The notes below the pieces were generated by a model that saw only the letters and a program-made list of their open reading frames with translations, was not told where the DNA came from and did no database searches. A stretch of 26,388 nucleotides of DNA from Candidatus Micrarchaeota archaeon (lineage in GTDB: Archaea; Micrarchaeota; Micrarchaeia; Norongarragalinales; SBBD01): NCBI GenBank assembly GCA_038046605.1, contig JBBSVW010000086.1:1-26388 (forward strand), read 5' to 3'. Position numbers and translations under genes: made by a program. How positions within the stretch are numbered: position 1 is the stretch's first letter; the number at the start of each line of letters is the position of its first letter. This document shows, piece after piece, positions 1,975 through 19,911 of the stretch.

Positions 1975-2126
1975 TATAGCGGTTAAGTAAAATATTGGAA
2001 CTATGAAATATTACGCAGACGCCCGAAGCGTCTGCTAATGCTAAGAAGCCTCGCAGGCTTCTGACGCAAAACCGCTATATGAGAATAAGGCAACAAAATG
2101 TTCCAATAATTGCCTTATTCGCTATA
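1975..2126 (-). repeat. TATA-bounded double-palindrome element (MITE-like), copy 1, inverted, with a ~57 bp twin-hairpin insertion
   Basis: Reverse complement TATAGCGAATAAGGCAATTATTGGAAC...TGCCTTATTCTCATATAGCGGTTTT...TATTTTACTTAACCGCTATA matches the copies at 18019 and 19799. Confidence 0.9.
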
Positions 2127-2159
2127 AAATTTTAAAAAACGCAGTAACAATAATATAAA

Positions 2160-4892: not shown

Positions 4893-4955
4893 AAGCAGAT
4901 TGTAAAGTTTTTTAAATTCCGCAACTTTTATTATTCCGTAGGTTTGGGTGATACA

Positions 4956-6110
4956 ATGAAGTTGCCATTGGTCTTATTGGTTCTTTTCGTTTCTGTTTTG
5001 CTCTTCGGCTGCACTCAAAAAACCGAACAAATTCCATCCCCAAGTCCAACGATTCAGACTGAAACATCAACTCCATCCGCAACCCCGATTGCGTCTTTGC
5101 AAGTTCTTTCTGATGAACCTGTCAAAGTTGTTACCAAATTTTTCGAGCTTGGAGAAGCGAAAGCCAATCCTGCGGCATTTAATCTGCTTTCTTCAAATTC
5201 GGTTATTAGGAAAGAGTTAACCCGAGGAACATATTTCAGATTCTTGATGGTTCCAAACGCCCGAACAGAAGGAGAGAATTCCAGTTTGGATAAAAACATC
5301 TTGGAAGTTGCAAAGTTAAAGGTGCTTTCTATTCGAGGAAACACAGCCTATGTAGGAATACTTCCAAAAAATGATACTAGCATCGAGGACTTTCAAATTC
5401 TTATTCCAAACAAGCAGGGAGTTATTGGAACGGTTATTGTAGTTCAGGAGAACGGCAAATGGCTGGTTGATGATATTATAGCATACCCTGATTTTGGTTT
5501 GGATGACCCGGGTTTGCTGCCAGATATTCTTGTTTTAAGTGATGCAGACCTCAAAGCTGAAAATTGCCAAAATCTTATGTCCACTTATTCCTATCCCGAC
5601 AAAGAAAAGTTAGTCCGCATTTGCAGGCAACAAATTGCCTTGCTTAAAGGAGATATTTCTGAATGCAAAACAATCGATGCCAACGGCTCTGAAAAACTTG
5701 ACTCTAATTGCGTGTTTGCGGTTGCAAAAGCGAAAGGAGACGCAACTATGTGCGAAAAAATTGACCCAAAGGCATACGGGCAATTGGGCTGGCTACGAAA
5801 TGACTGCCTGAAATATTTTGCAGAAAAAAATAATGACCCGAGCCTATGCGATAAGCTTAATCTTGCAGATGGGGTTGGCACGATTTGGGAGGAAAGAAAG
5901 GACATCTGTATGCTGCCGCTGGCCATACTTAACAAAGACGTTACGATTTGCGATAAAATGGTCGCTAAAAGAGAGGATAGAAGCTACCAATTTAATTGCT
6001 ATTTTCAGTTGGCAAGAATATTGAAACAACCCGAACTTTGTCATAAATTCCCCCCATATTTCAACATTACCTCGAACCTAAACCTGTGTCTTAATTCTTC
6101 GAAAGGTTAG
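4956..6110 (+). CDS. Putative lipoprotein with C-terminal Cys-rich repeats
   Basis: GGTGA RBS then ATG at 4956; LLFGC leader; Pro/Thr linker; repeated C-x-x-x-x-A-x-x-x-x-D-x-x-x-C units. Confidence 0.8.
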   Translation: MKLPLVLLVLFVSVLLFGCTQKTEQIPSPSPTIQTETSTPSATPIASLQVLSDEPVKVVTKFFELGEAKANPAAFNLLSSNSVIRKELTRGTYFRFLMVPNARTEGENSSLDKNILEVAKLKVLSIRGNTAYVGILPKNDTSIEDFQILIPNKQGVIGTVIVVQENGKWLVDDIIAYPDFGLDDPGLLPDILVLSDADLKAENCQNLMSTYSYPDKEKLVRICRQQIALLKGDISECKTIDANGSEKLDSNCVFAVAKAKGDATMCEKIDPKAYGQLGWLRNDCLKYFAEKNNDPSLCDKLNLADGVGTIWEERKDICMLPLAILNKDVTICDKMVAKREDRSYQFNCYFQLARILKQPELCHKFPPYFNITSNLNLCLNSSKG

Positions 6111-6140: not shown

Positions 6141-6419
6141 ATGGCTTTGATTAAATTTTAGCCGGCAAAAACACTCACAATCATTTACACGATACTCTAT
6201 TCAATATGCTTCGTAGTGTTTCTCGTATTGGCAAAAAATGCCCTTTATGCTACTCTTTTTGGCTTCATAGCAATCATTACAATTACGGGAACCTATCTTA
6301 TGTGACGGGAGAAATTCGTCTATGCAGAATGGCTTTTTGCAATTGCAGGGATTCTGACCTTCCCGCTTGGAGGACCGCTTGCTGCTTGCGCAATGCCCCT
6401 TTGGGTTGGTCATTTTTAA
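6141..6419 (+). pseudogene. Disrupted small membrane protein gene
   Basis: One frame reads MALIKF*PAKTLTIIYTILYSICFVVFLVLAKNALYATLFGFIAIITITGTYLM*REKFVYAEWLFAIAGILTFPLGG..., with TAG at 6159-6161 and TGA at 6303-6305. Confidence 0.55.
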
Positions 6420-6475
6420 ATGGATCGCGGCATAACCATTCACTGATTTTCAATTCCAATATGTTTGGTGGTCAA

Positions 6476-7168
6476 ATGTCACGGGAGGTAGTAATGCCAG
6501 GGGAGCACCTTGGGATGGAGGAGGAGTTTTTTGGCAATGAGCTAACTGTTGCGGATAATGGAGACCTTTTTTCCACGGTTCTTGGGGAAAAAAAGCTTTT
6601 GAACCGGCAAATGCAGATAACCTCCCGCAAGGTCGCAAGGATGCTGCAACAGGGCGATTATGTGCTGGGCAGGGTGCATGATTTGTATGATTCGGTTTCC
6701 CTAATCATTATCGAAAGCGCCGACGGGATGAAAAAAATGAATCTGGCGCAGGAAAATAATGCCTTAGAAAGCGAAGATGGAATTAGGAATGCTACAGGCG
6801 GGGGATTGCAGGAAAAGCAAGCCTTGGGCGCTTTTCTTGGCAGCCCAATTACAATGGATATTGACATATCCCAGCGCAAGGCAATTGGAAGCACTTATGC
6901 TTACATAAGAATCACCGAACTTGTCCGCGGAGGCGGATATGTGCGCAATTTCCGGGAGCACATAAAAATCGGCGATCTTTTGCTTGCGCGGGTAATCGAG
7001 GTAAATCCCCTTGGCACCTACCTAAGCATTGCCGATGAGGGCCTTGGCGTCCTTAAGGCAAACTGCTCGCTTTGCAGGGGACATTTGTCCGAAAGGGGGC
7101 GGATCCTTGTTTGCAACGGATGCGGAAACAAGGAAAGCCGAAAGCTGGCGATAGTTTCACCGGAATGA
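6476..7168 (+). CDS. csl4: Exosome complex RNA-binding protein Csl4
   Basis: VMPGEHLG N-terminus; S1 domain (GDYVLGRV, IKIGDLLLARV); GLGVLKANCSLC...CNGCGNKESRKLA zinc ribbon; GGTGG RBS before ATG 6476. Confidence 0.92.
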   Translation: MSREVVMPGEHLGMEEEFFGNELTVADNGDLFSTVLGEKKLLNRQMQITSRKVARMLQQGDYVLGRVHDLYDSVSLIIIESADGMKKMNLAQENNALESEDGIRNATGGGLQEKQALGAFLGSPITMDIDISQRKAIGSTYAYIRITELVRGGGYVRNFREHIKIGDLLLARVIEVNPLGTYLSIADEGLGVLKANCSLCRGHLSERGRILVCNGCGNKESRKLAIVSPE

Positions 7169-7193: not shown

Positions 7194-8651
7194 GTGGTAA
7201 AATTGGAATATTCCTTTAGGGAACTAATGGAGAAAGCAAGGGAAAAAACCAATTGGAATTATTTGGGCAAATGGGTCCAGCCACCGCTTTTCACCTCGTA
7301 TTGGCGAAATTTTGGCGAAAGGGATGGCTATTTGGCACTTGGCCTTCCGGAAATTTCCGGCAGCCTGCTTTACCTTGACGGGCATCACCTAATGCTTTCG
7401 CGGGAGGTTTTGTTGCTTGAGGAAGGCGCAACAAAGGCGCTTATTGAAGAGGATAGGGGATTTTTCCAGAAAATTTTCAGGGAATCGGATAGGATAACAA
7501 AAAATTACCTCAAATTCACGCAGGGGATGAAATTTGATGGATCAAGCGCGGGGGATGTTTTTAGGGAATTTTCAAGCAAAACCGATGAAATGTTTTGCCC
7601 ATGGATGGCTGCATTCCTTTTGGGCCCATTTGTCACAAGATTCCTTGATTTGGAACTTGAGAAGGAAAACCTCATCCAAATGGACCTGCTTTCCCACTTC
7701 AACCTGCCCAGGCCCACATTCCTAATTCAACAGGAACGGGAGGTGCGCGCATTCAAAAAGCAGTTTGAGGCTCTTGAAATTTCCCATATGCTTGAGGAGC
7801 CCCCAAAACGCGCCATAACAATGCTCATGAACACCCATCCGCAGCTTGCCAGAGGCCTCAAATTCCACATGGCGGAATACGAATGGGTGGGAACGCACCA
7901 TTGCTGGGGGGATCCGTTAACCCCCGAAAGGCTGTTTTTTCAGATTAGGGAGGCAATAAATGCCCCAAGAGCCCAGAGCAGGGAAATAGCCATTTCAGGC
8001 AGGCTCGAATACCTCATTTCCTTGGTGAAGGAATTTGCGTATTGGAGGCAATTTTGCGCGGAATGCTCCGCAATTGGCCTATTCAGGGCAAGGGGGCTTC
8101 TAAAAGAGGCAGCAAGCCATTTGGGCATTGGCTATGATGATATTATTTGGCTGACAAAAGGTGAAATATCCAAGGCGCTTGAAAAAAATTCACGCCAGCC
8201 ATTGGCAAAAGTAAGGGGCCGGCGAAAAATTTACGGTTATTTTCCGGATGGGGAAGGGGAGGAGGTAATCGGGGGGGGAAAGGTAACCCAGCTCATAGCA
8301 CGGCTTGTGCCAAAATTCGATTTCGAGCAAAAGCAGCTTTATGGAACTGTTGGAAGCATGGGCGAGGCAAAGGGCAGGGTATTTGTCGCCTTCACCCCGC
8401 TTGAGGCAATCCCAATGAGAAAAGGGGACATTTTGGTTGTCCCCCAAACAACACCCGATTATGTGATGGTCATGAAGAAGGCGGCGGCAATTGTCACCGA
8501 TGAGGGGGGGATCACATGCCACGCCGCAATTGTCAGCAGGGAACTAGGCATCCCCTGCATCGTTGGGACAAAAATAGGGACCAGCATGCTAAAAACGGGC
8601 GATAGGGTTGAAGTGGACGCCAATCGGGGTATTATTCGCAAATTAGATTGA
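7194..8651 (+). CDS. Protein with a C-terminal PEP-utilising enzyme mobile (phospho-His) domain
   Basis: GDILV..TTPDY..AAIVTDEGGITCHAAIVSRELGIPCIVG. The N-terminal ~370 aa are unassigned; no PEP synthase ATP-grasp domain recognised. Confidence 0.85.
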   Translation: MVKLEYSFRELMEKAREKTNWNYLGKWVQPPLFTSYWRNFGERDGYLALGLPEISGSLLYLDGHHLMLSREVLLLEEGATKALIEEDRGFFQKIFRESDRITKNYLKFTQGMKFDGSSAGDVFREFSSKTDEMFCPWMAAFLLGPFVTRFLDLELEKENLIQMDLLSHFNLPRPTFLIQQEREVRAFKKQFEALEISHMLEEPPKRAITMLMNTHPQLARGLKFHMAEYEWVGTHHCWGDPLTPERLFFQIREAINAPRAQSREIAISGRLEYLISLVKEFAYWRQFCAECSAIGLFRARGLLKEAASHLGIGYDDIIWLTKGEISKALEKNSRQPLAKVRGRRKIYGYFPDGEGEEVIGGGKVTQLIARLVPKFDFEQKQLYGTVGSMGEAKGRVFVAFTPLEAIPMRKGDILVVPQTTPDYVMVMKKAAAIVTDEGGITCHAAIVSRELGIPCIVGTKIGTSMLKTGDRVEVDANRGIIRKLD

Positions 8652-8665
8652 TTCGCAAATCAAAT

Positions 8666-8822
8666 TAAGGGGGTAGTGGGCAAGCGTCTTGGGGGAAGTA
8701 TCCCCCGCTACCCTTGGAAGCATCCCCCTCCTAATTCGTAAATGAAATTAGGAAGGGTAAGGCAACCCGATAGGGAAACGTAGTTGCCCTTGGGGTTGGG
8801 GGATTATCCCCCTAGCGGTGTC
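8666..8822. other. Multi-hairpin intergenic element 1, ending CCCCCTAGCGGTGTC
   Basis: Stems GGGTAGTGGG/CCCGCTACCC, CAAG/CTTG, GGGGA/TCCCC, TCCTAATT/AATTAGGA, GGCAAC/GTTGCC and GGGGGA/TCCCCC. Confidence 0.75.
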
Positions 8823-8864
8823 GTGGAAGTCGACGCCAATCGGGGTATTATACGGAAGTTGTGA
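8823..8864 (+). repeat. Recoded duplicate of the 3' end of the PEP-domain gene (VEVDANRGIIRKL*)
   Basis: Aligns with 8607..8645: 13/13 identical amino acids, six nucleotide differences, all at third codon positions. Confidence 0.9.
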
Positions 8865-8915
8865 ATTGAAGCCATATGTTGCTAAATTTGGCAAAATATT
8901 TTTATCGAATGATTG

Positions 8916-9530
8916 TCATTGCTTGATTTTTATTGCCCCCTGCCTGACAATCTTTGGCGTTTTTCCCGTGCAATCAACTATTGTGCTTGGCGGGAAGGGA
9001 GGGATGTTGCCGCCATCAATTATGATATCCGCAACCTGCGCAAAATCCCTGATTGCAATTCCGGAGGAGTATATTTCCCCCGCGCCGGAAAGGTTGGCGC
9101 TGGTTGCAGTTATGGGCTTGTTGAAATTATAAGTGATTGCAATTATTGCGGGATGCGAGGAGATCCGGATCCCAATCGTTTTCCCTTTTGAAAGGTTATT
9201 GGCGAGTTTGAATGGAGTTTTCTTCTCAAGGATGAGGGTTAGGGGACCCGGAAGGTATTTTTTTGCAAGCCTTGAGGCAAGCGGGGTTAGTGCCGCGTAT
9301 TTTGATGCCATTTCCATATCAAATGCGAAAATGGATAGCGGTTTTGTAAAATCGCGCGCCTTTAGCCGGAATACTTTCTCAACTGCCTTGGGATTCGAGG
9401 CATCAGCAAGCATCCCATAGCTGGTTTCGGTTGGGGCAATTACTATTCCACCACCGGCAAGGGCATAGACACATTGCGAAAATGCGGTTTCATCTTCCAA
9501 ATTAAGGATTTTTGCGTGCATTTTTACCAT
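8916..9530 (-). CDS. tsaC: L-threonylcarbamoyladenylate synthase (TsaC/Sua5 YrdC domain)
   Basis: PTETSYG, K-x-R..KP, PGPLT, IGIRI, TATSANLSG and PSTIVD motifs. Start is ATG 9530 or 9521. Confidence 0.92.
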   Translation of the reverse strand: MVKMHAKILNLEDETAFSQCVYALAGGGIVIAPTETSYGMLADASNPKAVEKVFRLKARDFTKPLSIFAFDMEMASKYAALTPLASRLAKKYLPGPLTLILEKKTPFKLANNLSKGKTIGIRISSHPAIIAITYNFNKPITATSANLSGAGEIYSSGIAIRDFAQVADIIIDGGNIPPFPPSTIVDCTGKTPKIVRQGAIKIKQ

Positions 9531-9648
9531 CTTCGGACAATTTAGGCATCCCATTAGTGGGGGATCATCCTTAGGCAAAGAAAAAACAATTTTTGTCAGC
9601 AACCCCTTGCATCCGCCCCACTTATAGCCAATTAGTTGCACTTGCGGC

Positions 9649-10200
9649 TTAAAATAGCTCTCGCATCATGTCCGAAAGCGACTTGCGCATGCTTTCGTGC
9701 TTTTCCTCATGCCATTTGATGAACTCCTCTGCGAAGAGGATGGGGAGGAGGATGAGCGAATAGAAAAGCAATGCCACCCCCTGCGTTGTCACAAAATCGT
9801 ATTTTTCAATTGGCTGCGGGATAGGCAGGTCGGAAAACGAGTAGGCCGCATTCGTTAGGGGATAAAGCAGCCTGATATCGCCATAGAACATGTCCGCAAC
9901 CAGATGCCCGGTCAGCATTGCCAGCAAAACCAGGAAGAATTTTTGTGCCTCGATGCCGTAGGGCTTTTTGTTTCGTTCATAATGGTAGGCAAGGTAGAAT
10001 AGCAAAAGGGGCAGGAAAAATGCCACCCAAATGTTATGGAGGGGCTTGATATAGGACGGATCCCAGCCAAGGAAATGGTCGAAATCAATTGCAACGGCAA
10101 AGCTTGCGGCAAATATCACAAAGGGCAGCTTGTGCTTTTTGTGCAAATCAACCGCAAGGGCGGCAATTATTGAAAATATGAAGTGGAAGAGGGAATCCAT
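9649..10200 (-). CDS. Membrane-bound metal-dependent hydrolase-like protein
   Basis: MDSLFH.., IDFDH, LHN, GHLVAD and LLYP motifs. True start is likely ATG 10200; the longer ORF-track extension is antisense to nadM. Confidence 0.7.
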   Translation of the reverse strand: MDSLFHFIFSIIAALAVDLHKKHKLPFVIFAASFAVAIDFDHFLGWDPSYIKPLHNIWVAFFLPLLLFYLAYHYERNKKPYGIEAQKFFLVLLAMLTGHLVADMFYGDIRLLYPLTNAAYSFSDLPIPQPIEKYDFVTTQGVALLFYSLILLPILFAEEFIKWHEEKHESMRKSLSDMMRELF

Positions 10201-10318
10201 GGGAAATACCACATATTGCGGATTGGAATGGGGGCTCCCGAAGGGAAAACCCTTAAAATTCGCACGACAACATGTAATCCCGAGATGGTTTTTATTCATT
10301 TGCATCTTTAAGGTGTTC

Positions 10319-10855
10319 ATGGATAGCAAAACAATGGCGAGCGCAACGACGGATGCGAAGGATGGGAAAACCGCCCTTGTAATCGGACGGTTCCAGCCTT
10401 TCCATAGCGGGCATTTGGAAGCGGTGGAGGGGATCCTAAAAAGGCATTCGAGGCTGCTTCTTGCCATAGGCAGCGCGCAGGAGTCCCGCACCCCAAAAAA
10501 CCCTTTTTCTTCAAAGGAAAGGAAGGGGATGATTGCCGCTTGCCTAAAAAAACGGGGCATTTTGCCAAGGATAAAAATAATCCTGCTTGATGATGAAAAC
10601 CACCATGAGAGGTGGGTGAGGGGGGTTTTGCAAATCGCAAAGGATGCCGATGTTGTGTATTCCGGAAACTGGCTTGTGCAAAGATTGCTCGGGGGCAGGT
10701 ACGCGGTGCATACAATGAAATCGAGCGTAAAAATTTCAGCCTCGCAAATTAGGGAACTGATGAAAAAGGGGGATGAAAAATGGCAGCGATTTGTGCCCAA
10801 GGAAATTTCTGAATACATCCTCACGAAAGGGCTGGAGAAAATTTGGCCCTTTTGA
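10319..10855 (+). CDS. nadM: Nicotinamide-nucleotide adenylyltransferase (archaeal NMNAT)
   Basis: IGRFQPFHSGH, IGSAQES..NPF..ER, ISASQIR and W..VP motifs; AGGTG RBS before ATG 10319. Confidence 0.9.
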   Translation: MDSKTMASATTDAKDGKTALVIGRFQPFHSGHLEAVEGILKRHSRLLLAIGSAQESRTPKNPFSSKERKGMIAACLKKRGILPRIKIILLDDENHHERWVRGVLQIAKDADVVYSGNWLVQRLLGGRYAVHTMKSSVKISASQIRELMKKGDEKWQRFVPKEISEYILTKGLEKIWPF

Positions 10856-10983
10856 AATTGCCAATTATACCCAAATCAAGGGGCCGGACAATTTAGCATT
10901 GGGATTTAGGCGGAATCAGCTATCCAAATTACCTGCCTGAAAAATTTGGCGAAGGGAACCGCTGTTGAAATTACCAATATTTT

Positions 10984-11553
10984 TTAGGGCAATTGCTTCT
11001 TGAACCAATCCCCGAATTTCCTAACTGCAATTGCACGGTGTGAAAATTCGTTTTTTTGCGCTTTGCCCATCCTGCTAAGGCGAACCTTTTTCCCTTCCGG
11101 GATGAAGATTGCCTCATATGGAAGCTTGGGGTTTTGGAATTTTGGCGAATCCGGCGCATTTGTGATTTTGCCCCTGCAGATCCCCTGAAAAGTGCGCACG
11201 CTTTTCCCATCAAAGTATGCCACGATGGTTTTGAAATAAGCCCCCCGCTTTTTGCCCTTAAGAAGGGCCAAAATGCCCCCATACCCTATGGAGCGGAAAA
11301 CAAAGGAGGGGAAAACGCCGGGGAAACTCGGGTAGGCGGAAAAATATACTCCCGTGTCTTCCGCGATCACGGGCTTGTTGATTAGCATATGGGCGGTTTT
11401 CGCCTTCCCTATTGCCACCTGCCTTTGGTCCTCCGAACGGATTTCGGATAGGTCGGCTTTGAGGGCAATTGCCTTTATCCCCATCCGGGCCAGAATTTGT
11501 GAAACCTCAAGTATTTTTTCGGGATTGGAAGATGCGAAATGGATTGTTTTCAT
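10984..11553 (-). CDS. rdgB: Non-canonical purine NTP pyrophosphatase (RdgB/HAM1)
   Basis: FASSNPEK, AEDTG, FPG, IFIP and SHR motifs. Confidence 0.92.
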   Translation of the reverse strand: MKTIHFASSNPEKILEVSQILARMGIKAIALKADLSEIRSEDQRQVAIGKAKTAHMLINKPVIAEDTGVYFSAYPSFPGVFPSFVFRSIGYGGILALLKGKKRGAYFKTIVAYFDGKSVRTFQGICRGKITNAPDSPKFQNPKLPYEAIFIPEGKKVRLSRMGKAQKNEFSHRAIAVRKFGDWFKKQLP

Positions 11554-11649
11554 TTTGACGTGCCTCAAAGTGCCAAATGGTTATTGGCGCAACATTCCAG
11601 CAAACTAATCACTTGCTCAATTGCCCCCCCCTAGTTTATTCAAAACGCC

Positions 11650-14412
11650 CTAGCTGCCGCTTACATCCAGTGTACCCCTCCGTTTTGCGACATATTTTAT
11701 GATCTCCTCAACGACCAGTATGGAAGAACTTATGATGATGATGGAGGCCCATTCCAATCCCGAAAGGGGGACCGTCTTGAAAATCTGCTCAAGCGCGCCG
11801 GTTTGCACAATCAGGAATTGTGAAATAAACCCAACCAGCATTGCGCCAATTAAGTACCGATTATTGAATACGCCAATCTTAAGCAGGGGATCGTGATCAG
11901 CATGCCAGCTTAGGGCGATGAATAGCTGGAAGAAAACAAGGAGGCTAAAGGCAGCTGTCCGCGCTTTTTCCAAATTATCCGTTTCCATTTGGTACCAGAA
12001 CATCCCAAGGGTCACGATCGTTATGAATACTCCGATGAAAATCAGCTTTTCCAACGCATTCCGGGTAAGGACTGGCTTCTTGGGATCCCTTGGCTTCCTT
12101 CTCATGATCCCCTCAGCTTTGGTATCCATCGCAAGCGCAAGCGCGGGCAAGGAATCCGTCGCCAAATTCATCCACAGGATTTGTATTGGGAGGAGGGGCG
12201 AATCCCAGCCAACCATAATGGCTATGAAAATTATGAGCACTTCGCCAATGTTGCATGAGATTAGGTATTTTACCGATTTAAGTATGTTGTCAAAAATTAT
12301 GCGGCCTTCCTCTACGGCAGCAACAATCGAGGCAAAATTGTCATCCACAAGAACCATGTCCGCGCTCTCCTTTGCAACATCAGTGCCGGATATGCCCATT
12401 GCAACCCCAATATCGGATTTTTTTATTGCAGGCGCATCATTCACCCCATCCCCGGTCATTGCAACGATTTCGCCCTTTGCCTGCAGGGCGGAGACGATTT
12501 TCAGCTTGTGCTCGGGTGAAACCCGTGCATAAACGGATATCTCCTCGACTATTTTTTCAAATTCCTCATCTGGCATCCCTTCAAGCTCCCTTCCAGTCAT
12601 GACCTTGTTTTTGCCCTCCTCATAAATGCCCAATTCCTTGGCTATGGACCTTGCAGTAAGCTCGTTATCACCGGTGATCATTATTGTTTTGATCCCCGCC
12701 TGCTTGCAGATTGCTATTGCATCCTTTGCCTCCTGCCTTGGCGGGTCCATCATGGCTATTAGCCCAAGGAACACGAGCTGTAATTCCACCTCCCCAATTG
12801 AAAAATCCTTGCGCTTTTTGGTTTTGAGTATGCGCATTGCAAATCCAAGGACGCGAAGGCCCCTGGATGCATATTCCGCATTTTTATTCAAATAGAGCTG
12901 TTTTGAAAGGGCGTCCATTTTTACCGGGCATCCATCCTTCATAACCTGGGTTGATTTTTCAAGGATGAATTCAGGCGCCCCCTTCGAATATGCAACAAGC
13001 CCTGCTTCCTCCTCATCATAAATTACACTCATCATCTTCCTTGCAGAATCAAATGTGAGTTCCTCGATCTTTTTACGCCTCTTCTTTTCGGTTAGGTAAT
13101 CAAGCCCCGCCTTTTTCCCCGCCACAAGAAGGCACGCCTCAGTTGGGTCGCCAATTATCGATACTGTTTTGCCTAAGGAATTTAGGGAGGCATTATTGCA
13201 AAGGAGGGCGCAATGCATAAGCTCCTGGAAGTTTTGTTCATATTGGGCATCGATATTCAATCCGCTTTCGGCAATGATTTCGCCATTTAGCTCGAAACCT
13301 CCGCCTGTTACCGAATATGACTTGTTGTTTGTGAATATGCCACGGACGGTCATTTCATTGCGCGTAAGCGTTCCGGTCTTATCCGAGCATATGACCGTTG
13401 CAGAGCCAAGCCCTTCGGCAGCTGGAAGGCGCCTAATTATGGAGTTTCGCCTCGCCATTCGCTGAACGCCAATTGCTAGGGAAATTGTAACAACAGCTGG
13501 GAGCCCCTCAGGAATTGCTGCAACTGCAAGGCTTACGGCAATCAGGAAAAGTTCGAGTATTTTATCAAAATTTAGGCCGGCACTCAAATATGCGCGGGCA
13601 ATGCCGACAACGAACACAAGCGCCACTGCCCCAATTGCAATTTTCCCAAGCTGCTTGCCTAAAGCCTCCAATTTCTCCTGCAGGGGCGTTTGCTCATCCT
13701 CAATTGTCTGCACCAGATCAGCAATTTTGCCTATTTGCGTTTGCGCACCGGTAAAGCAGACTACCGCCCGCGCCTCCCCCTTGGTGACAAGGGTGCTCAT
13801 GAAAACCATGTTGCGCCAATCGTTCACAACTGATTTTTCGGAAATGATCAGGTCGGCTTTTTTGGAGGCAGGCTCGCTTTCGCCAGTTAGGCTTGCCTCC
13901 TCAATTTCTAGATTGTGGGATTCGAGAAGCCTGGCATCAGCTGGGACTTTGTCCCCTTCATGGAGGATAATGATATCTCCAGGGACAAGGTCTGCAGTAG
14001 GAATTTCCGATTCGATACCCATCCGGAGCACTTTTGCTTTGGGGGTGACCATTTTGCGAAGCGCTTCGATTGCCTTGCCGGCCTTATGCTCCTGATAAAC
14101 CCCGATGATGGCGTTTATCACTACGATTGCAATGATCGCAATCGAGTCAATGTACTCTGGCTCTGGCGAAAAATATGAGGCGATTGCGGAGATTATGGAT
14201 GCCGCAATCAGTAGGAGGATTACAAAATCCTTGAATTCGCCAATGAACATTTCAAGGATTGTTTTCTTCTTGCGTTCCTTTAGGGTGTTGGGGCCATATT
14301 TCAATAGGCGCAGCGAGGAATCGGATGCGCTTAGGCCCTCCCTTGTGGCATTTAGCCCCTTTAGCGCCTCTTCAACTGTAAGGGATTGGAAACCAGCGGC
14401 AGTTTGGGGCAT
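11650..14412 (-). CDS. Cation-transporting P-type ATPase, P2A (Ca2+) type
   Basis: TGES, IPEGLP, DKTGTLT, KGAPE, TGDN, GDGVNDAP and QILWMNLATD motifs. Confidence 0.95.
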   Translation of the reverse strand: MPQTAAGFQSLTVEEALKGLNATREGLSASDSSLRLLKYGPNTLKERKKKTILEMFIGEFKDFVILLLIAASIISAIASYFSPEPEYIDSIAIIAIVVINAIIGVYQEHKAGKAIEALRKMVTPKAKVLRMGIESEIPTADLVPGDIIILHEGDKVPADARLLESHNLEIEEASLTGESEPASKKADLIISEKSVVNDWRNMVFMSTLVTKGEARAVVCFTGAQTQIGKIADLVQTIEDEQTPLQEKLEALGKQLGKIAIGAVALVFVVGIARAYLSAGLNFDKILELFLIAVSLAVAAIPEGLPAVVTISLAIGVQRMARRNSIIRRLPAAEGLGSATVICSDKTGTLTRNEMTVRGIFTNNKSYSVTGGGFELNGEIIAESGLNIDAQYEQNFQELMHCALLCNNASLNSLGKTVSIIGDPTEACLLVAGKKAGLDYLTEKKRRKKIEELTFDSARKMMSVIYDEEEAGLVAYSKGAPEFILEKSTQVMKDGCPVKMDALSKQLYLNKNAEYASRGLRVLGFAMRILKTKKRKDFSIGEVELQLVFLGLIAMMDPPRQEAKDAIAICKQAGIKTIMITGDNELTARSIAKELGIYEEGKNKVMTGRELEGMPDEEFEKIVEEISVYARVSPEHKLKIVSALQAKGEIVAMTGDGVNDAPAIKKSDIGVAMGISGTDVAKESADMVLVDDNFASIVAAVEEGRIIFDNILKSVKYLISCNIGEVLIIFIAIMVGWDSPLLPIQILWMNLATDSLPALALAMDTKAEGIMRRKPRDPKKPVLTRNALEKLIFIGVFITIVTLGMFWYQMETDNLEKARTAAFSLLVFFQLFIALSWHADHDPLLKIGVFNNRYLIGAMLVGFISQFLIVQTGALEQIFKTVPLSGLEWASIIIISSSILVVEEIIKYVAKRRGTLDVSGS

Positions 14413-17173: not shown

Positions 17174-17785
17174 ATGAAAGCGTACCTGCTAATGGTTTTT
17201 GCTGCGTTCCTGCTTTTTGGATGCACAAGCAATAATCCTTCCCCTTCAGCCTTGCCATCAACCCAATTGGTAGATACGCTTCCTCCCATTTCAACGATTA
17301 CTACAAATCCTGGTGATAAAATGGCGGTAGCAAAAGGGGATACGGTTTTCGTTTGGTATTTGGGAATTTTGGATGATGGCACAACCTTTGACACAAACAT
17401 TGTGGCAGAAGCAAAGAAAGCAGGTACTTTTGATGCGGGAAGGCCCTATGAGACCCTTGATTTCCAGGTGGGCGCTGGCCAGATGATAAAAGGATTTGAT
17501 GCGGGAGTTGTAGGCATGAAGGAAGGGGAGACCAAAACCGTCAAGATGGCAGCCAAGGACGCATATGGGGAACTAAGGGCGGATCTAATCCAAGTAGTTC
17601 CACTAGCTGATTTAAAGAAAGCTGGAATTAATGCCTCAGAAGGGCAGATCATTGGCACGAGCACTGGCGCAAGGGGGGTAATCCGGAAAGTTGATTCGCA
17701 GAACGCAACAATTGATTTCAACCACTTCCTTGCCGGGCAGGCCTTGACGTTCAAGATTACTGTTGAAAAAATAACTAAAGCCTAG
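17174..17785 (+). CDS. FKBP-type peptidyl-prolyl isomerase (SlyD-like, IF domain) with lipoprotein-like leader
   Basis: GDTV..Y.G.LDDGTTFDT, VGAGQMIKGFD, DAYG and IDFNHFLAGQALTF motifs; LLFGC leader. Confidence 0.92.
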   Translation: MKAYLLMVFAAFLLFGCTSNNPSPSALPSTQLVDTLPPISTITTNPGDKMAVAKGDTVFVWYLGILDDGTTFDTNIVAEAKKAGTFDAGRPYETLDFQVGAGQMIKGFDAGVVGMKEGETKTVKMAAKDAYGELRADLIQVVPLADLKKAGINASEGQIIGTSTGARGVIRKVDSQNATIDFNHFLAGQALTFKITVEKITKA

Positions 17786-17885
17786 GGGGGGATAGAAGCG
17801 ACATACCAAAGACGGAGTCTTTGTATGTTAGTAGACCTTAAAGGTCTACGTAACACGAGTAAGGGGGTCTCCCCCTTAGTGTGTC
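17786..17885. other. Multi-hairpin intergenic element 2, ending CCCCCTTAGTGTGTC
   Basis: Hairpins ACATAC-C-AAAGAC/GTCTTT-GTATGT (17801-17828), GTAGACCT/AGGTCTAC (17831-17849) and TAAGGGGG/CCCCCTTA (17860-17878). Confidence 0.75.
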
Positions 17886-17960
17886 AACCACTTCTTGGCG
17901 GGGCAGCAATTGACCTTCAAAATTACGGTTGAGAAGATCACTAAAGCTTTGGGGTGTTGA
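17886..17960 (+). repeat. Recoded duplicate of the 3' end of the FKBP gene (NHFLAGQQLTFKITVEKITKALGC*)
   Basis: 17886..17948 aligns with 17720..17782: 20/21 identical amino acids, 50/63 identical nucleotides, nine synonymous codon changes and one A-to-Q change. Confidence 0.92.
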
Positions 17961-18018
17961 AAGCAAGCGTGAAACAAAGTTCGCCCTTTGGCCAGACAAA
18001 ATGTTTGCAAAGTCGACT

Positions 18019-18111
18019 TATAGCGAATAAGGCAATTATTGAAACTTTTCCCTGCCTTATTCTCATATAGCGGTTTTTTTGAGTGATCCGTTATTTTACT
18101 TAACTGCTATA
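18019..18111 (+). repeat. TATA-bounded double-palindrome element, copy 2
   Basis: First 59 nt identical to 19799..19857; TATA at 18019, 18066 and 18108. Confidence 0.92.
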
Positions 18112-18223
18112 GAACTTCTGGCGATACCATCATGACCGCCATCCAATGCGCGCAGATATGGTTAAATACTTCTTCTTAATTACAATGTAGACGGGTCATT
18201 ACCAGCGTACGGGGTTGCTTTCG

Positions 18224-19213
18224 ATGGGGGGGCTTTTAGATAAATTACAAAATTTAGTACCAAAAAGCATTGGTTCCGCCATCACCAAGGCTAGTTTAAA
18301 TTCAAAAATATCGGAAATTCAGGCAGAAACAACAAAATTGCAGGAGTTTATCGATAAATTAGAGGCAGATAAGAAGAAAATACTATTGAAAGCAAATGAA
18401 AAACTATGCTTTCATGGTTTTTCGGATTTCTTACAAGAAAGAATGATAAGGGAATATTCGTCTGGTTTTGCAGGCTTCAGAGTGGCAAGAGGCGTATATT
18501 TAGGAGGCTCAAGCGGCTCTTCTGAATCCTTTCCAACACTTAAAAAAATAGACAGAGGCACCTTAACGGTAACCAGTAAGCGCATTATCTTTAATGGTAC
18601 ATACAAAAATATTGAAATTAAATTAGATAAAATCAATACTCTTGAACCATTTTCTAATGCAATTGAAATCGGCCAAGAAAATAAGCAAAAGACAATGGTA
18701 TTTACCACCGAATATCCTTTTTCAATTTTATATGCTGTTCAAGCTTCTTTAAATCCTAACGATATCTCAGAGGAAGCATCCTTAGCAATTAAGAGAGAAA
18801 TAAACAGCAAAATCGCTCTTGACTTAAAAAAAATGGAATTAAAGTCGCTTGTTCTTGACGAAGACAATATCAGAATATACGCGACATATTTCAGTTTACT
18901 TTTTAGGAAGCTAAATTCGATTATGTCAATTTACAGAGCTTTACCATCTTCAAAAACCGTATCTGGAATTGACAAGTTAGTTCAATCTATAGGTAATTTC
19001 GCTTCTGTACTTGAGGATATTAGTAATGCAACCGACGTTATTAGAAAACGAGAACCTCAAGGACTTAATGGAGACCAAAAATCTAAATATTACGAAAAAG
19101 GATGGGAAGAAATCGGAGTTAAGGAAAAATTAGTTAATGCTATTCGGATTTATGTAAGTGCTGCTGAAGAAAGCGGAATAGCAAAAATAACCTACGCCCC
19201 TAAACCATCATAA
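18224..19213 (+). CDS. Hypothetical protein with coiled coil and possible PH-like domain (AT-rich, probably foreign)
   Basis: Long ORF; IDRGTLTVTSKRIIFNG..IEIKLDKI resembles bacterial PH-like domains; visibly more AT-rich than neighbouring genes. Confidence 0.7.
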   Translation: MGGLLDKLQNLVPKSIGSAITKASLNSKISEIQAETTKLQEFIDKLEADKKKILLKANEKLCFHGFSDFLQERMIREYSSGFAGFRVARGVYLGGSSGSSESFPTLKKIDRGTLTVTSKRIIFNGTYKNIEIKLDKINTLEPFSNAIEIGQENKQKTMVFTTEYPFSILYAVQASLNPNDISEEASLAIKREINSKIALDLKKMELKSLVLDEDNIRIYATYFSLLFRKLNSIMSIYRALPSSKTVSGIDKLVQSIGNFASVLEDISNATDVIRKREPQGLNGDQKSKYYEKGWEEIGVKEKLVNAIRIYVSAAEESGIAKITYAPKPS

Positions 19214-19798: not shown

Positions 19799-19891
19799 TA
19801 TAGCGAATAAGGCAATTATTGAAACTTTTCCCTGCCTTATTCTCATATAGCGGTTTTATTTGAATGGTCCTTTATTTTACTAACAGCTATA
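19799..19891 (+). repeat. TATA-bounded double-palindrome element, copy 3
   Basis: Direct repeat of 18019..18111; both copies are 93 bp. Confidence 0.92.
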
Positions 19892-19911
19892 AAACCCATA
19901 TAATTTGTTGC

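Follow-up and report, generated by a model that had tools for sequence, protein, structure and literature searches.

How does the coding end of a gene come to stand twice in a row, spelled with different synonymous codons, while the gene stays whole? The question is raised by locus 1 (positions 7194–8864) of the stretch analyzed here, referred to throughout as the window: the 26 388 nucleotides of contig JBBSVW010000086.1 from Candidatus Micrarchaeota archaeon (assembly GCA_038046605.1), an ultrasmall archaeon from groundwater. At this locus a gene encoding a PEP-domain protein is followed by a non-coding hairpin element, termed E, and then by a second copy of the last 13 codons of the gene. 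The window holds two instances, locus 1 and a locus encoding an FKBP-type protein, of this small and hitherto undescribed element, with which genes stay intact through a second, differently coded end. The genome to which the window belongs (1.64 Mb, Micrarchaeota) is termed G000, related genomes are termed G001 to G010, and contigs of G000 are given as C followed by a number. The parts of locus 1 are as follows.

7194–8651, forward strand: open reading frame (ORF) for a 485-amino acid protein, whose sole recognized part is a C-terminal PEP-utilising enzyme mobile (swivel His) domain (Pfam PF00391, residues 409–479, E-value 6.9e-27).
8607–8651, forward strand: H1, the working gene end, VEVDANRGIIRKLD plus stop, from sequence reading and repeat listing.
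8652–8822, forward strand: E, a non-coding hairpin element 171 nt long that belongs to the largest size class, from nhmmer modules, blastn copies in the genome and an RNA fold of −69.3 kcal/mol (z −2.78).
8823–8864, forward strand: H2, the spare gene end, VEVDANRGIIRKL plus its own stop, beginning at offset 0 from the 3′ end of E and nearest to H1 among 17 paralogue ends.

The initial annotation had stated that the end of the PEP-domain gene is duplicated over 13 codons with six synonymous and no non-synonymous changes, and re-reading of the sequence bore this out, with the copied codons at 8823–8861. H1 reads GTT GAA GTG GAC GCC AAT CGG GGT ATT ATT CGC AAA TTA GAT TGA (8607–8651), and H2 reads GTG GAA GTC GAC GCC AAT CGG GGT ATT ATA CGG AAG TTG TGA (8823–8864). 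All six differences (GTT/GTG, GTG/GTC, ATT/ATA, CGC/CGG, AAA/AAG and TTA/TTG) are synonymous and fall on third positions, for which the probability among 39 random positions is C(13,6)/C(39,6) = 5e-4. The 20-nt identical core of the two copies, GACGCCAATCGGGGTATTAT, was likewise found as described, as was the separate stop codon of H2 at 8862–8864; relative to H2, one additional codon (GAT) precedes the stop in H1. A repeat search pairs the two ends as 38 nt at 87% identity. The 10-bp repeat ATTCGCAAAT is indeed present at 8634–8643 and 8651–8660, and here the earlier description had missed that the repeat is the conserved leader of E, matched by the gene's own I-R-K codons, and that locus 1 is one member of a repeat family. 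The NCBIfam matches of the 485-amino acid protein cover the domain only, all below full-length cut-offs, and the gene is one of 17 paralogues in G000 (17 tblastn matches, self included). Several of these paralogues lie in tandem, and the N-terminal 400 amino acids have no Pfam match.

The duplicated gene end at locus 1 is a genuine feature. The last 75 nt of 2712 ORFs of at least 100 amino acids were aligned to the sequence 20–420 nt downstream, with reversed targets as control. A score of 25.5 was obtained for the H1/H2 pair; in the reversed control the 99.9th percentile was 13.5 and the highest score 19. The threshold was exceeded by 20 ORFs, compared with one in the control. Logan contigs from other sequencing runs reproduce the junctions of locus 1 without differences: X1 records cover 8475–8683 and 8704–13406, and a 264-nt X7 record from a separate study covers 8803–9066, that is, the 3′ end of E, H2 and downstream sequence. 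No Logan contig spans the entire 8607–8864 interval. The contigs of four runs carried the identical form throughout, and no joint over 8607–8864 or 17718–17884 was seen in them; the single joint that was present, at 8676–8798, is another short E copy.

Copies of E share defined ends. The 5′ end of the family reads ..TTGATTCGCAAATCAAATTAAGGGGGTAG.GGC and the 3′ end GGGGG-loop-CCCCCTAGnGGTGTC, or, in the longer form, ACACG.GTAGGGGG-loop-CCCCCTAGAGGTGTC. The 3′ module consists of a helix GACAC/GTGTC around a helix TAGGGGG-loop-CCCCCTA and ends ..GGTGTC. The E copy at locus 1 is a composite of leader and 5′ module (8650–8681; nhmmer E-value 0.0011; leader TTGATTCGCAAAnnAAnTAA followed by GGGGGTAG), inner hairpin modules, and a 3′ module (8795–8822; nhmmer E-value 9.7e-5, with the strict 3′ pattern also matched) ending GGGGGATTATCCCCCTAGCGGTGTC. 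The inner modules, which also occur at C4, C5, C10, C53 and C89, take the place of the left strand of the outer helix (an AACCC/GGGTT helix). The leader and the GGGGGTAG motif provide stop codons; at the PEP-domain gene the stop TGA (8649–8651) is itself leader sequence, falling within the conserved ttGATTCGC. In most copies the leader reads as a six-codon ORF end (ATT CGC ARA ... TAA), and its similarity to PEP-domain gene ends (for example at C60 and C68) suggests that it may be the fossil of such an end.

The structure of E was examined by aligning 37 minimal copies, drawn from six genomes. A 5-bp helix (GACAC/GTGTC), a 3 × 3 internal loop and an 8-bp helix make up the core; in the two helices 97.1% of cells are paired, compared with 86.5% in shuffles, and six of the 13 pairs change on both sides, a covariation score reached by none of 500 shuffles. 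The observed core score was 0.304, against at most 0.073 for slid controls. Since the complementary strand would have mismatches in place of the G.U pairs (14 of them at one position), the folding strand is the one written here. At the Rfam gathering score there were no matches in the window, both loci giving only chance-level matches (E-value above 1), and a tRNA search of the window found none.

In G000, nhmmer searches with the end modules gave 55 3′ ends and 47 5′ ends at an E-value below 0.01, or about 55 copies of E in the 1.64-Mb genome. The 45 module pairs fall into size classes of 56–70 nt (n = 27), 101–119 nt (n = 13) and 150–181 nt (n = 5); none of them carries an ORF or is a longer, autonomous form, the largest being 181 nt. 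Among 41 related genomes the strict 3′ pattern occurs in six, all of family f1, and the reversed control gave none. Over all GTDB species genomes the same pattern returned 21 records, 12 of them from Micrarchaeota, Norongarragalinales or archaeon metagenome-assembled genomes (MAGs). The other nine are unrelated, mostly high-GC bacteria and one Thermoproteaceae MAG, and are presumed to be chance. On these pattern matches, E appears restricted to one family of Micrarchaeota. A lone match among viral contigs, which does not have the 5′ part of E, was also taken as chance. No published description or name of the element was found in the literature.

The arrangement seen at locus 1 is a layout of the family. 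For 54 copies of E that could be evaluated in G000, 17 are followed by a duplicate of their upstream flank that starts 0–6 nt past the 3′ end of E (hit scores 13.5–47.5; control maximum 11); the start lies within 2 nt in 13 of the 17, with an offset of 0 at locus 1, and the duplications measure 17–80 nt. In the gene-anchored search described above, 17 of the 20 duplicated ORF ends enclose a hairpin element. Whichever gene end is involved, the order is the working end H1, then a leader of variable length, then the hairpin core with its terminal GGTGTC, then the spare end H2 and the native flank. The working copy is invariably on the leader side, and the spare copy adjoins GGTGTC and continues into the flank. 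Between H1 and the GGGG core lie 0 to about 77 nt, and leaders may be truncated or lengthened. The targets, more than 20 unrelated gene ends, have one conserved 50-nt core in common; in every case the spare end matches the adjoining gene, and none of the 54 copies was found to precede an orphan end of a distant gene. The layout recurs in G004, G005, G008, G009 and G010, where it involves protein 3′ ends (a ribosomal-stalk-like gene and kae1), tRNA 3′ and 5′ ends and a gene start; E lies antisense at gene starts. On contig C31 (7713–7806, reverse strand) a tRNA-Gly(GCC) gene is interrupted in its T-loop by an antisense E copy plus spacer. As a separate observation on tRNA genes, ARAGORN found only 13 in G000, six with 74–233-nt introns of another hairpin type.

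The strongest single sign that spare ends evolved as working alleles is an array on C73 (31336–31863), in which four E copies of different subtypes separate five in-frame, differently coded copies of the end ..YLAKPLLKK* (the last 11–17 codons), each with a stop; units 2–4 have the left boundary GATTAC in common. Young insertions are seen at C55, C76, C18 and G005 kae1, where E sequence rewrites the stop or tail of the upstream copy and the downstream copy runs into the flank. At C55, C76 and G005 kae1 the two gene-end copies are identical, and at C18 a stretch of 41 identical nt is followed by 39 nt with 12 differences, which marks a breakpoint within the repeat. No microhomology between the 3′ end of E and the sequence preceding the duplication was evident by eye. 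Some copies carry additional sequence on their 5′ side, such as the 81-nt spacer at G005 kae1, a second copy of which is absent from G005 and G000, and the kae1 flank of G000 aligned to neither G005 flank.

The second case in the window lies at 17174–17960.

17174–17785, forward strand: gene for an FKBP-type peptidyl-prolyl isomerase (Pfam PF00254 and PF22199), of which the last ~ 68 nt (17718–17785; repeat listing) are the working end.
17786–17885, forward strand: E copy of the ~ 100-nt class with three hairpins, ending ..GGGGGTCTCCCCCTTAGTGTGTC (fold −40.4 kcal/mol, z −4.0, none of 200 shuffles as good; nhmmer 3′ module E-value 0.04).
17884–17960, forward strand: spare FKBP end, NHFLAGQQLTFKITVEKITKALGC plus stop, a copy of the last 22 codons, from repeat and codon comparison.

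The border between this E copy and the spare end is ambiguous by 2 nt, and related copies of the element occur at C28 and C31. The two FKBP ends differ at two, one and nine sites on codon positions 1, 2 and 3, with a single amino acid change. As read by eye, the orthologue in G005 is similarly arranged with another E type and border, G001 retains a remnant, and the site is empty in G002, G003, G004 and G006.

Divergence between working and spare ends was then compared over 18 loci and 242 aligned codons, six of the loci having identical copies. Differences numbered 23, 11 and 69 on codon positions 1, 2 and 3, so that 67% are on third positions (binomial P = 3e-12 against one third, and 6e-6 against 0.45, the value for free drift of the spare copy). 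This bias is slightly understated, as the second gene at C42 was entered two bases out of frame and its two differences, counted on position 2, read as third-position and silent. The proportion of synonymous differences (pS) was 0.51 and that of non-synonymous differences (pN) 0.053, a pN/pS of about 0.1. This ratio, together with the third-position bias, argues that the spare ends are alleles that evolved as working gene ends, rather than decaying duplicates. True orthologues between G000 and G005 or G001 show pS of 0.66–0.95 and pN of 0.2–0.3. Working and spare ends are thus less diverged than orthologues, and behave as alleles of lineages closer to one another than the sampled species.

Which of the two ends of the PEP-domain gene is the older was approached through relatives. 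H2 opens at the first base past E and extends into the native flank towards the neighbouring gene.

8916–9641, reverse strand: convergent gene of the Sua5/YciO/YrdC family (Pfam PF01300), which is also the neighbour at the E-less syntenic locus of G001.

The possibility had been raised that H2 is the remnant of a deleted tandem paralogue. H2 matches H1 at 33 of 39 positions and the ends of the 16 other G000 paralogues at no more than 26 of 39, and at the syntenic locus of G001 no insert and no paralogue separates the orthologue from Sua5. Because H2 is nearest to H1 and starts exactly at the 3′ end of E, and because G001 carries no paralogue at this place, the paralogue-remnant reading fails. 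The suggestion of the initial annotation that the downstream copy is the displaced original end fared better in part: it fits the family-wide layout and is plausible. The paralogue comparison placed H2 closest to the end of its own gene, while the orthologues in G001 and G005 were too diverged to tell whether H1 or H2 is ancestral, with several amino acid differences and mixed signals by eye. No close E-less allele of the locus was present in the contigs of other runs, and scanning metagenomes for the 20-nt core gave the window's own contig only. H2 is nevertheless probably the displaced resident end, judging from the young insertions, in which the stop or tail of the upstream copy is E sequence, and from a fungal analogue taken up below.

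The interpretation of these data that we favour, as somewhat probable, is that the upstream end H1, or its stop-proximal part, was imported together with E from a diverged relative or rewritten as E arrived, and that H2 is the resident end pushed downstream. The 258 nt of locus 1 would then mark where a small hairpin element, non-coding and strand-specific, came to sit at the 3′ end of the PEP-domain gene. That gene remains intact, since its last 13 codons are present in full on the leader side of E. In such a scheme copying or joining of E would begin at its exact 3′ end, at a break ~ 20–80 nt upstream of the stop. Homology would decide the far junction if the incoming single strand has E behind the end of the same gene; otherwise this junction would fall at a variable point in the leader. 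The exact 3′ junction, the ragged 5′ side, the C18 breakpoint, the match to the adjacent gene and the strand-specific folding all fit copying or joining begun at the 3′ end of E. It could be, although this is tentative and we would not presume it, that E is a protein-less, homology-addressed mobile element, in which a single-stranded copy, ending exactly in GGTGTC and carrying the end of the last gene visited, serves as template where that same gene is broken in another lineage. Each move would then install a foreign working gene end and stack the old one behind it.

Several observations weigh against importation of H1. Read by eye, the H1 tail (CGC .. TTA plus the extra codon) is nearer to the G005 orthologue than the H2 tail is, which would fit vertical descent of H1. 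The differences at the PEP-domain locus flank the identical core on both sides, a pattern that a single switch point does not yield. The spare copy at C9 has an indel and five non-synonymous differences, and the spare end beside a toxin–antitoxin cassette on C58 has several amino acid changes. Duplication is not obligatory, as 37 of the 54 copies of E have no detectable duplicate; many of these adjoin the stop codon of a convergent gene, which is sometimes completed by E. Two toxin–antitoxin cassettes without E sit between duplicated gene ends in G000, so the duplication may be a general property of insertion, recombination or DNA uptake in the host and not of E. In the FKBP gene the E types and borders differ between G000 and G005, which favours repeated fresh insertion at one gene end over a single circulating cassette. 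A donor of H1 was found neither in the metagenome scan with the 20-nt core nor in the contigs of other runs, and profile searches of G000 and the family genomes found no enzyme able to move E. The two cassettes themselves are a ParE-like/RHH cassette on C31 (~ 12965–13670), between gene 3′-end copies that share an identical run of ~ 30 nt, and an AbiEii/AbiEi cassette on C58 (~ 9044–10560), between two diverged gene 3′-end copies.

The reverse transcriptase profile RVT_1 matched in none of 11 family genomes, which are 68–97% complete, so that a SINE-like (short interspersed nuclear element) insertion would need a DNA template. Phage_integrase (PF00589) had no match in G000, the control being positive in 14 of 14 genomes, and neither TnpB-type proteins nor Cas1 matched in G000. 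Y1_Tnp was present in five of the six family genomes that show the strict E pattern and in none of the five that lack it, though these genomes are related and not independent samples. The Y1 genes, a lead at most, look like unrelated IS200 copies: they are GC-rich, have different hairpins of their own, vary between genomes and do not adjoin E. One such gene on C9 (22797–26150) lies beside a free-standing LAGLIDADG ORF. LAGLIDADG_3 has 18 matches in G000, several in ORFs of 880–1222 amino acids that are probably inteins, and some in ORFs of 190–312 amino acids.

The alternative that survives best, though we think it rather unlikely, is a long target duplication: 17–80 nt of the host's own sequence would be duplicated as E or any other cassette enters at the stop codon, E carrying nothing, and the gene side or flank side would later be overwritten by recombination with diverged relatives, leaving the spare as an earlier allele. 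It would account for the six loci with identical copies, for the similar duplications around the E-less toxin–antitoxin cassettes, for the 20-nt core between diverged parts at locus 1 and the mosaic at C18, and for the FKBP gene having been hit independently in two species; insertion of this kind has been published for restriction–modification genes (PMC2853133). However, an E-less donor would overwrite H1 only as far as E, or would delete E, and the five-layer array on C73 requires about twice as many events. Recombination over 40–70 nt at 15–25% divergence should, moreover, be rare.

It is quite unlikely, in our view, that a cassette of gene end plus E is released between the repeats as a circle or fragment and re-enters the homologous gene end in another cell by a single, ends-in crossover, with arrays growing in the process. 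The left boundary common to units 2–4 of the C73 array, the constant fit of the spare end to the adjacent gene and the lack of orphan ends behind the 54 copies would all follow, and no dedicated enzyme would be necessary, in line with the absent recombinases. Such a crossover predicts divergence on either side of it, yet C18 has 41 identical bases on one side; circles of 100–250 bp are difficult to form; no circle or empty-site joints appeared in the contigs of other runs, though contigs drop rare forms; and the first duplication is left unexplained.

A use at the level of RNA is very improbable. Here the tRNA splicing endonuclease, or some other activity, would excise E and one repeat from the RNA, and both ends would be translated and selected. 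The sense strand does fold, as its G.U pairs indicate, a copy interrupts the T-loop of the tRNA-Gly gene, and excision of exactly one repeat unit always preserves the frame. Against this, the E core is no bulge-helix-bulge, direct repeats give no splice-site pairing, and E is antisense at gene starts. Decay in place, in which the downstream copy is a dead, neutrally drifting duplicate and the working copy takes synonymous changes only, is the simplest account of a duplication, and would be consistent with the indel and amino acid changes at C9 and C58. It predicts about 45% third-position differences and a pN of about half pS, where 67% and a pN/pS of 0.10 were observed (P = 6e-6); the five in-frame copies with stops on C73 and the six silent differences out of six at locus 1 oppose it too, and it has hardly any likelihood left. 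Least credible of all are the scar of a lost virus or plasmid with a site-specific integrase (gene-end regeneration is classic for integrases, as with phage 21 and e14 in icd, but G000 has no Phage_integrase match, more than 20 different targets have one conserved 50-nt core, and the sole viral-contig match has no 5′ part of E), a tandem-paralogue remnant (PEP-domain genes are often in tandem, but H2 is closest to H1 and not to any paralogue) and a two-strain assembly chimera (the junctions recur in contigs of other runs and studies, and the layout in MAGs of other assemblies).

Should importation of gene ends by E be correct, it would constitute a compact route, enzyme-less or served in trans, by which a selfish element enters essential genes without harm in minimal genomes. 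On the more tentative view of E as a homology-addressed mobile element, a 50-nt hairpin would routinely exchange the gene ends of symbionts between species, and arrays would be a readable record of past alleles. The spare ends would be dated allele snapshots, and so a handle on interspecies recombination in uncultured DPANN archaea. If the exact 3′ end of E is a nick or priming site, a nuclease or polymerase activity is still to be found. For annotation, the finding accounts for orphan mini-ORFs in these MAGs, as well as for their unusual C-terminal extensions and interruptions of tRNA genes, and it cautions that gene 3′ ends may differ in ancestry from gene bodies.

The window contains, in addition, a second and unrelated repeat family of ~ 95 nt (TATAGCGAATAAGGCA...CATATAGCGG) at 2068–2127 (reverse strand), 18018–18112 and 19799–19895, with about 13 further places in G000 at 86–98% identity. 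ORFs at 4944–6110, 6206–7168, 9649–10824 and 18215–19213 (320–391 amino acids) belong to no Pfam family at an E-value of 0.001 or below.

Comparison with known systems places E outside several classes. Integrase elements regenerate target 3′ ends, as phage 21 and e14 do in E. coli icd, and islands at tRNA genes accrete in tandem. They resemble E loci in the replacement end with silent differences, the displaced original end and the successive layers at one site, and differ in having an integrase and one fixed attachment site, where E has no integrase that was found, many unrelated targets and a length of 50–180 nt. A tyrosine-integrase element is contradicted by the absence of PF00589 matches in G000 and by the more than 20 unrelated target gene ends. 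Repetitive extragenic palindromic sequences and bacterial interspersed mosaic elements (REPs and BIMEs) are small palindromic repeats moved by Y1 transposases of the IS200/IS605 type (RAYT), REPs having a GTAG feature. Like them, E is a short imperfect hairpin that folds on one strand, has GTAG-like motifs by the stem, ends 10 nt beyond the hairpin foot on the 3′ side, lies at gene ends and is present in tens of copies. To our knowledge, REPs have not been reported to duplicate their targets, whereas E does, and the host Y1 genes are ordinary IS200-like genes with hairpins of their own, not beside E. Insertion of the IS200/IS605 type proceeds without target duplication and is contradicted by the 17–80-nt duplications at 17 of 54 copies.

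With non-long-terminal-repeat retroelements and SINEs, E shares an exact 3′ end (0–6 nt), 5′ truncation (a leader remnant of 0 to about 77 nt) and a variable target duplication; target-primed reverse transcription is opposed by the lack of RVT_1 matches in the 11 family genomes. An archaeal bulge-helix-bulge intron, with two 3-nt bulges on opposite strands and a 4-bp helix at the borders, is contradicted by the covariation-supported core, which has a symmetric 3 × 3 loop between 5-bp and 8-bp helices. Where comparison was possible, E does not show what defines integrative elements, retroelements, elements of the IS200 type or bulge-helix-bulge introns.

Two described systems come closer. Insertion of restriction–modification genes leaves direct repeats of tens of bp that are derived from the target and often lie over a gene 3′ end, around an insert that lacks a transposase or integrase (Furuta et al. 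2010, PMC2853133). The likeness extends to the same layout around the two toxin–antitoxin cassettes; the restriction–modification repeats, as given there, are near-identical and enclose kilobases of genes, while E is a conserved hairpin with one exact end and allele-like repeats. The mobile endonuclease ORFs (mORFs) of fungal mitochondria create gene hybrids in Allomyces atp6 and in Glomus atp6, atp9, cox2 and nad3 (PMC3630166). They insert in the 3′ part of a gene, giving an in-frame foreign C-terminal part, then the element, then the native C-terminal part downstream; as at E loci, the copies are diverged in DNA and nearly identical in protein, and transfer between species was inferred. The mORFs are ~ 1 kb and encode a LAGLIDADG or GIY-YIG endonuclease, whereas E is 50–180 nt, non-coding and structured, with ~ 55 copies, arrays, and targets that include tRNA ends and gene starts. 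The mORF gene hybrids are the nearest described layout to that of E, followed by the long-duplication insertion of restriction–modification genes.

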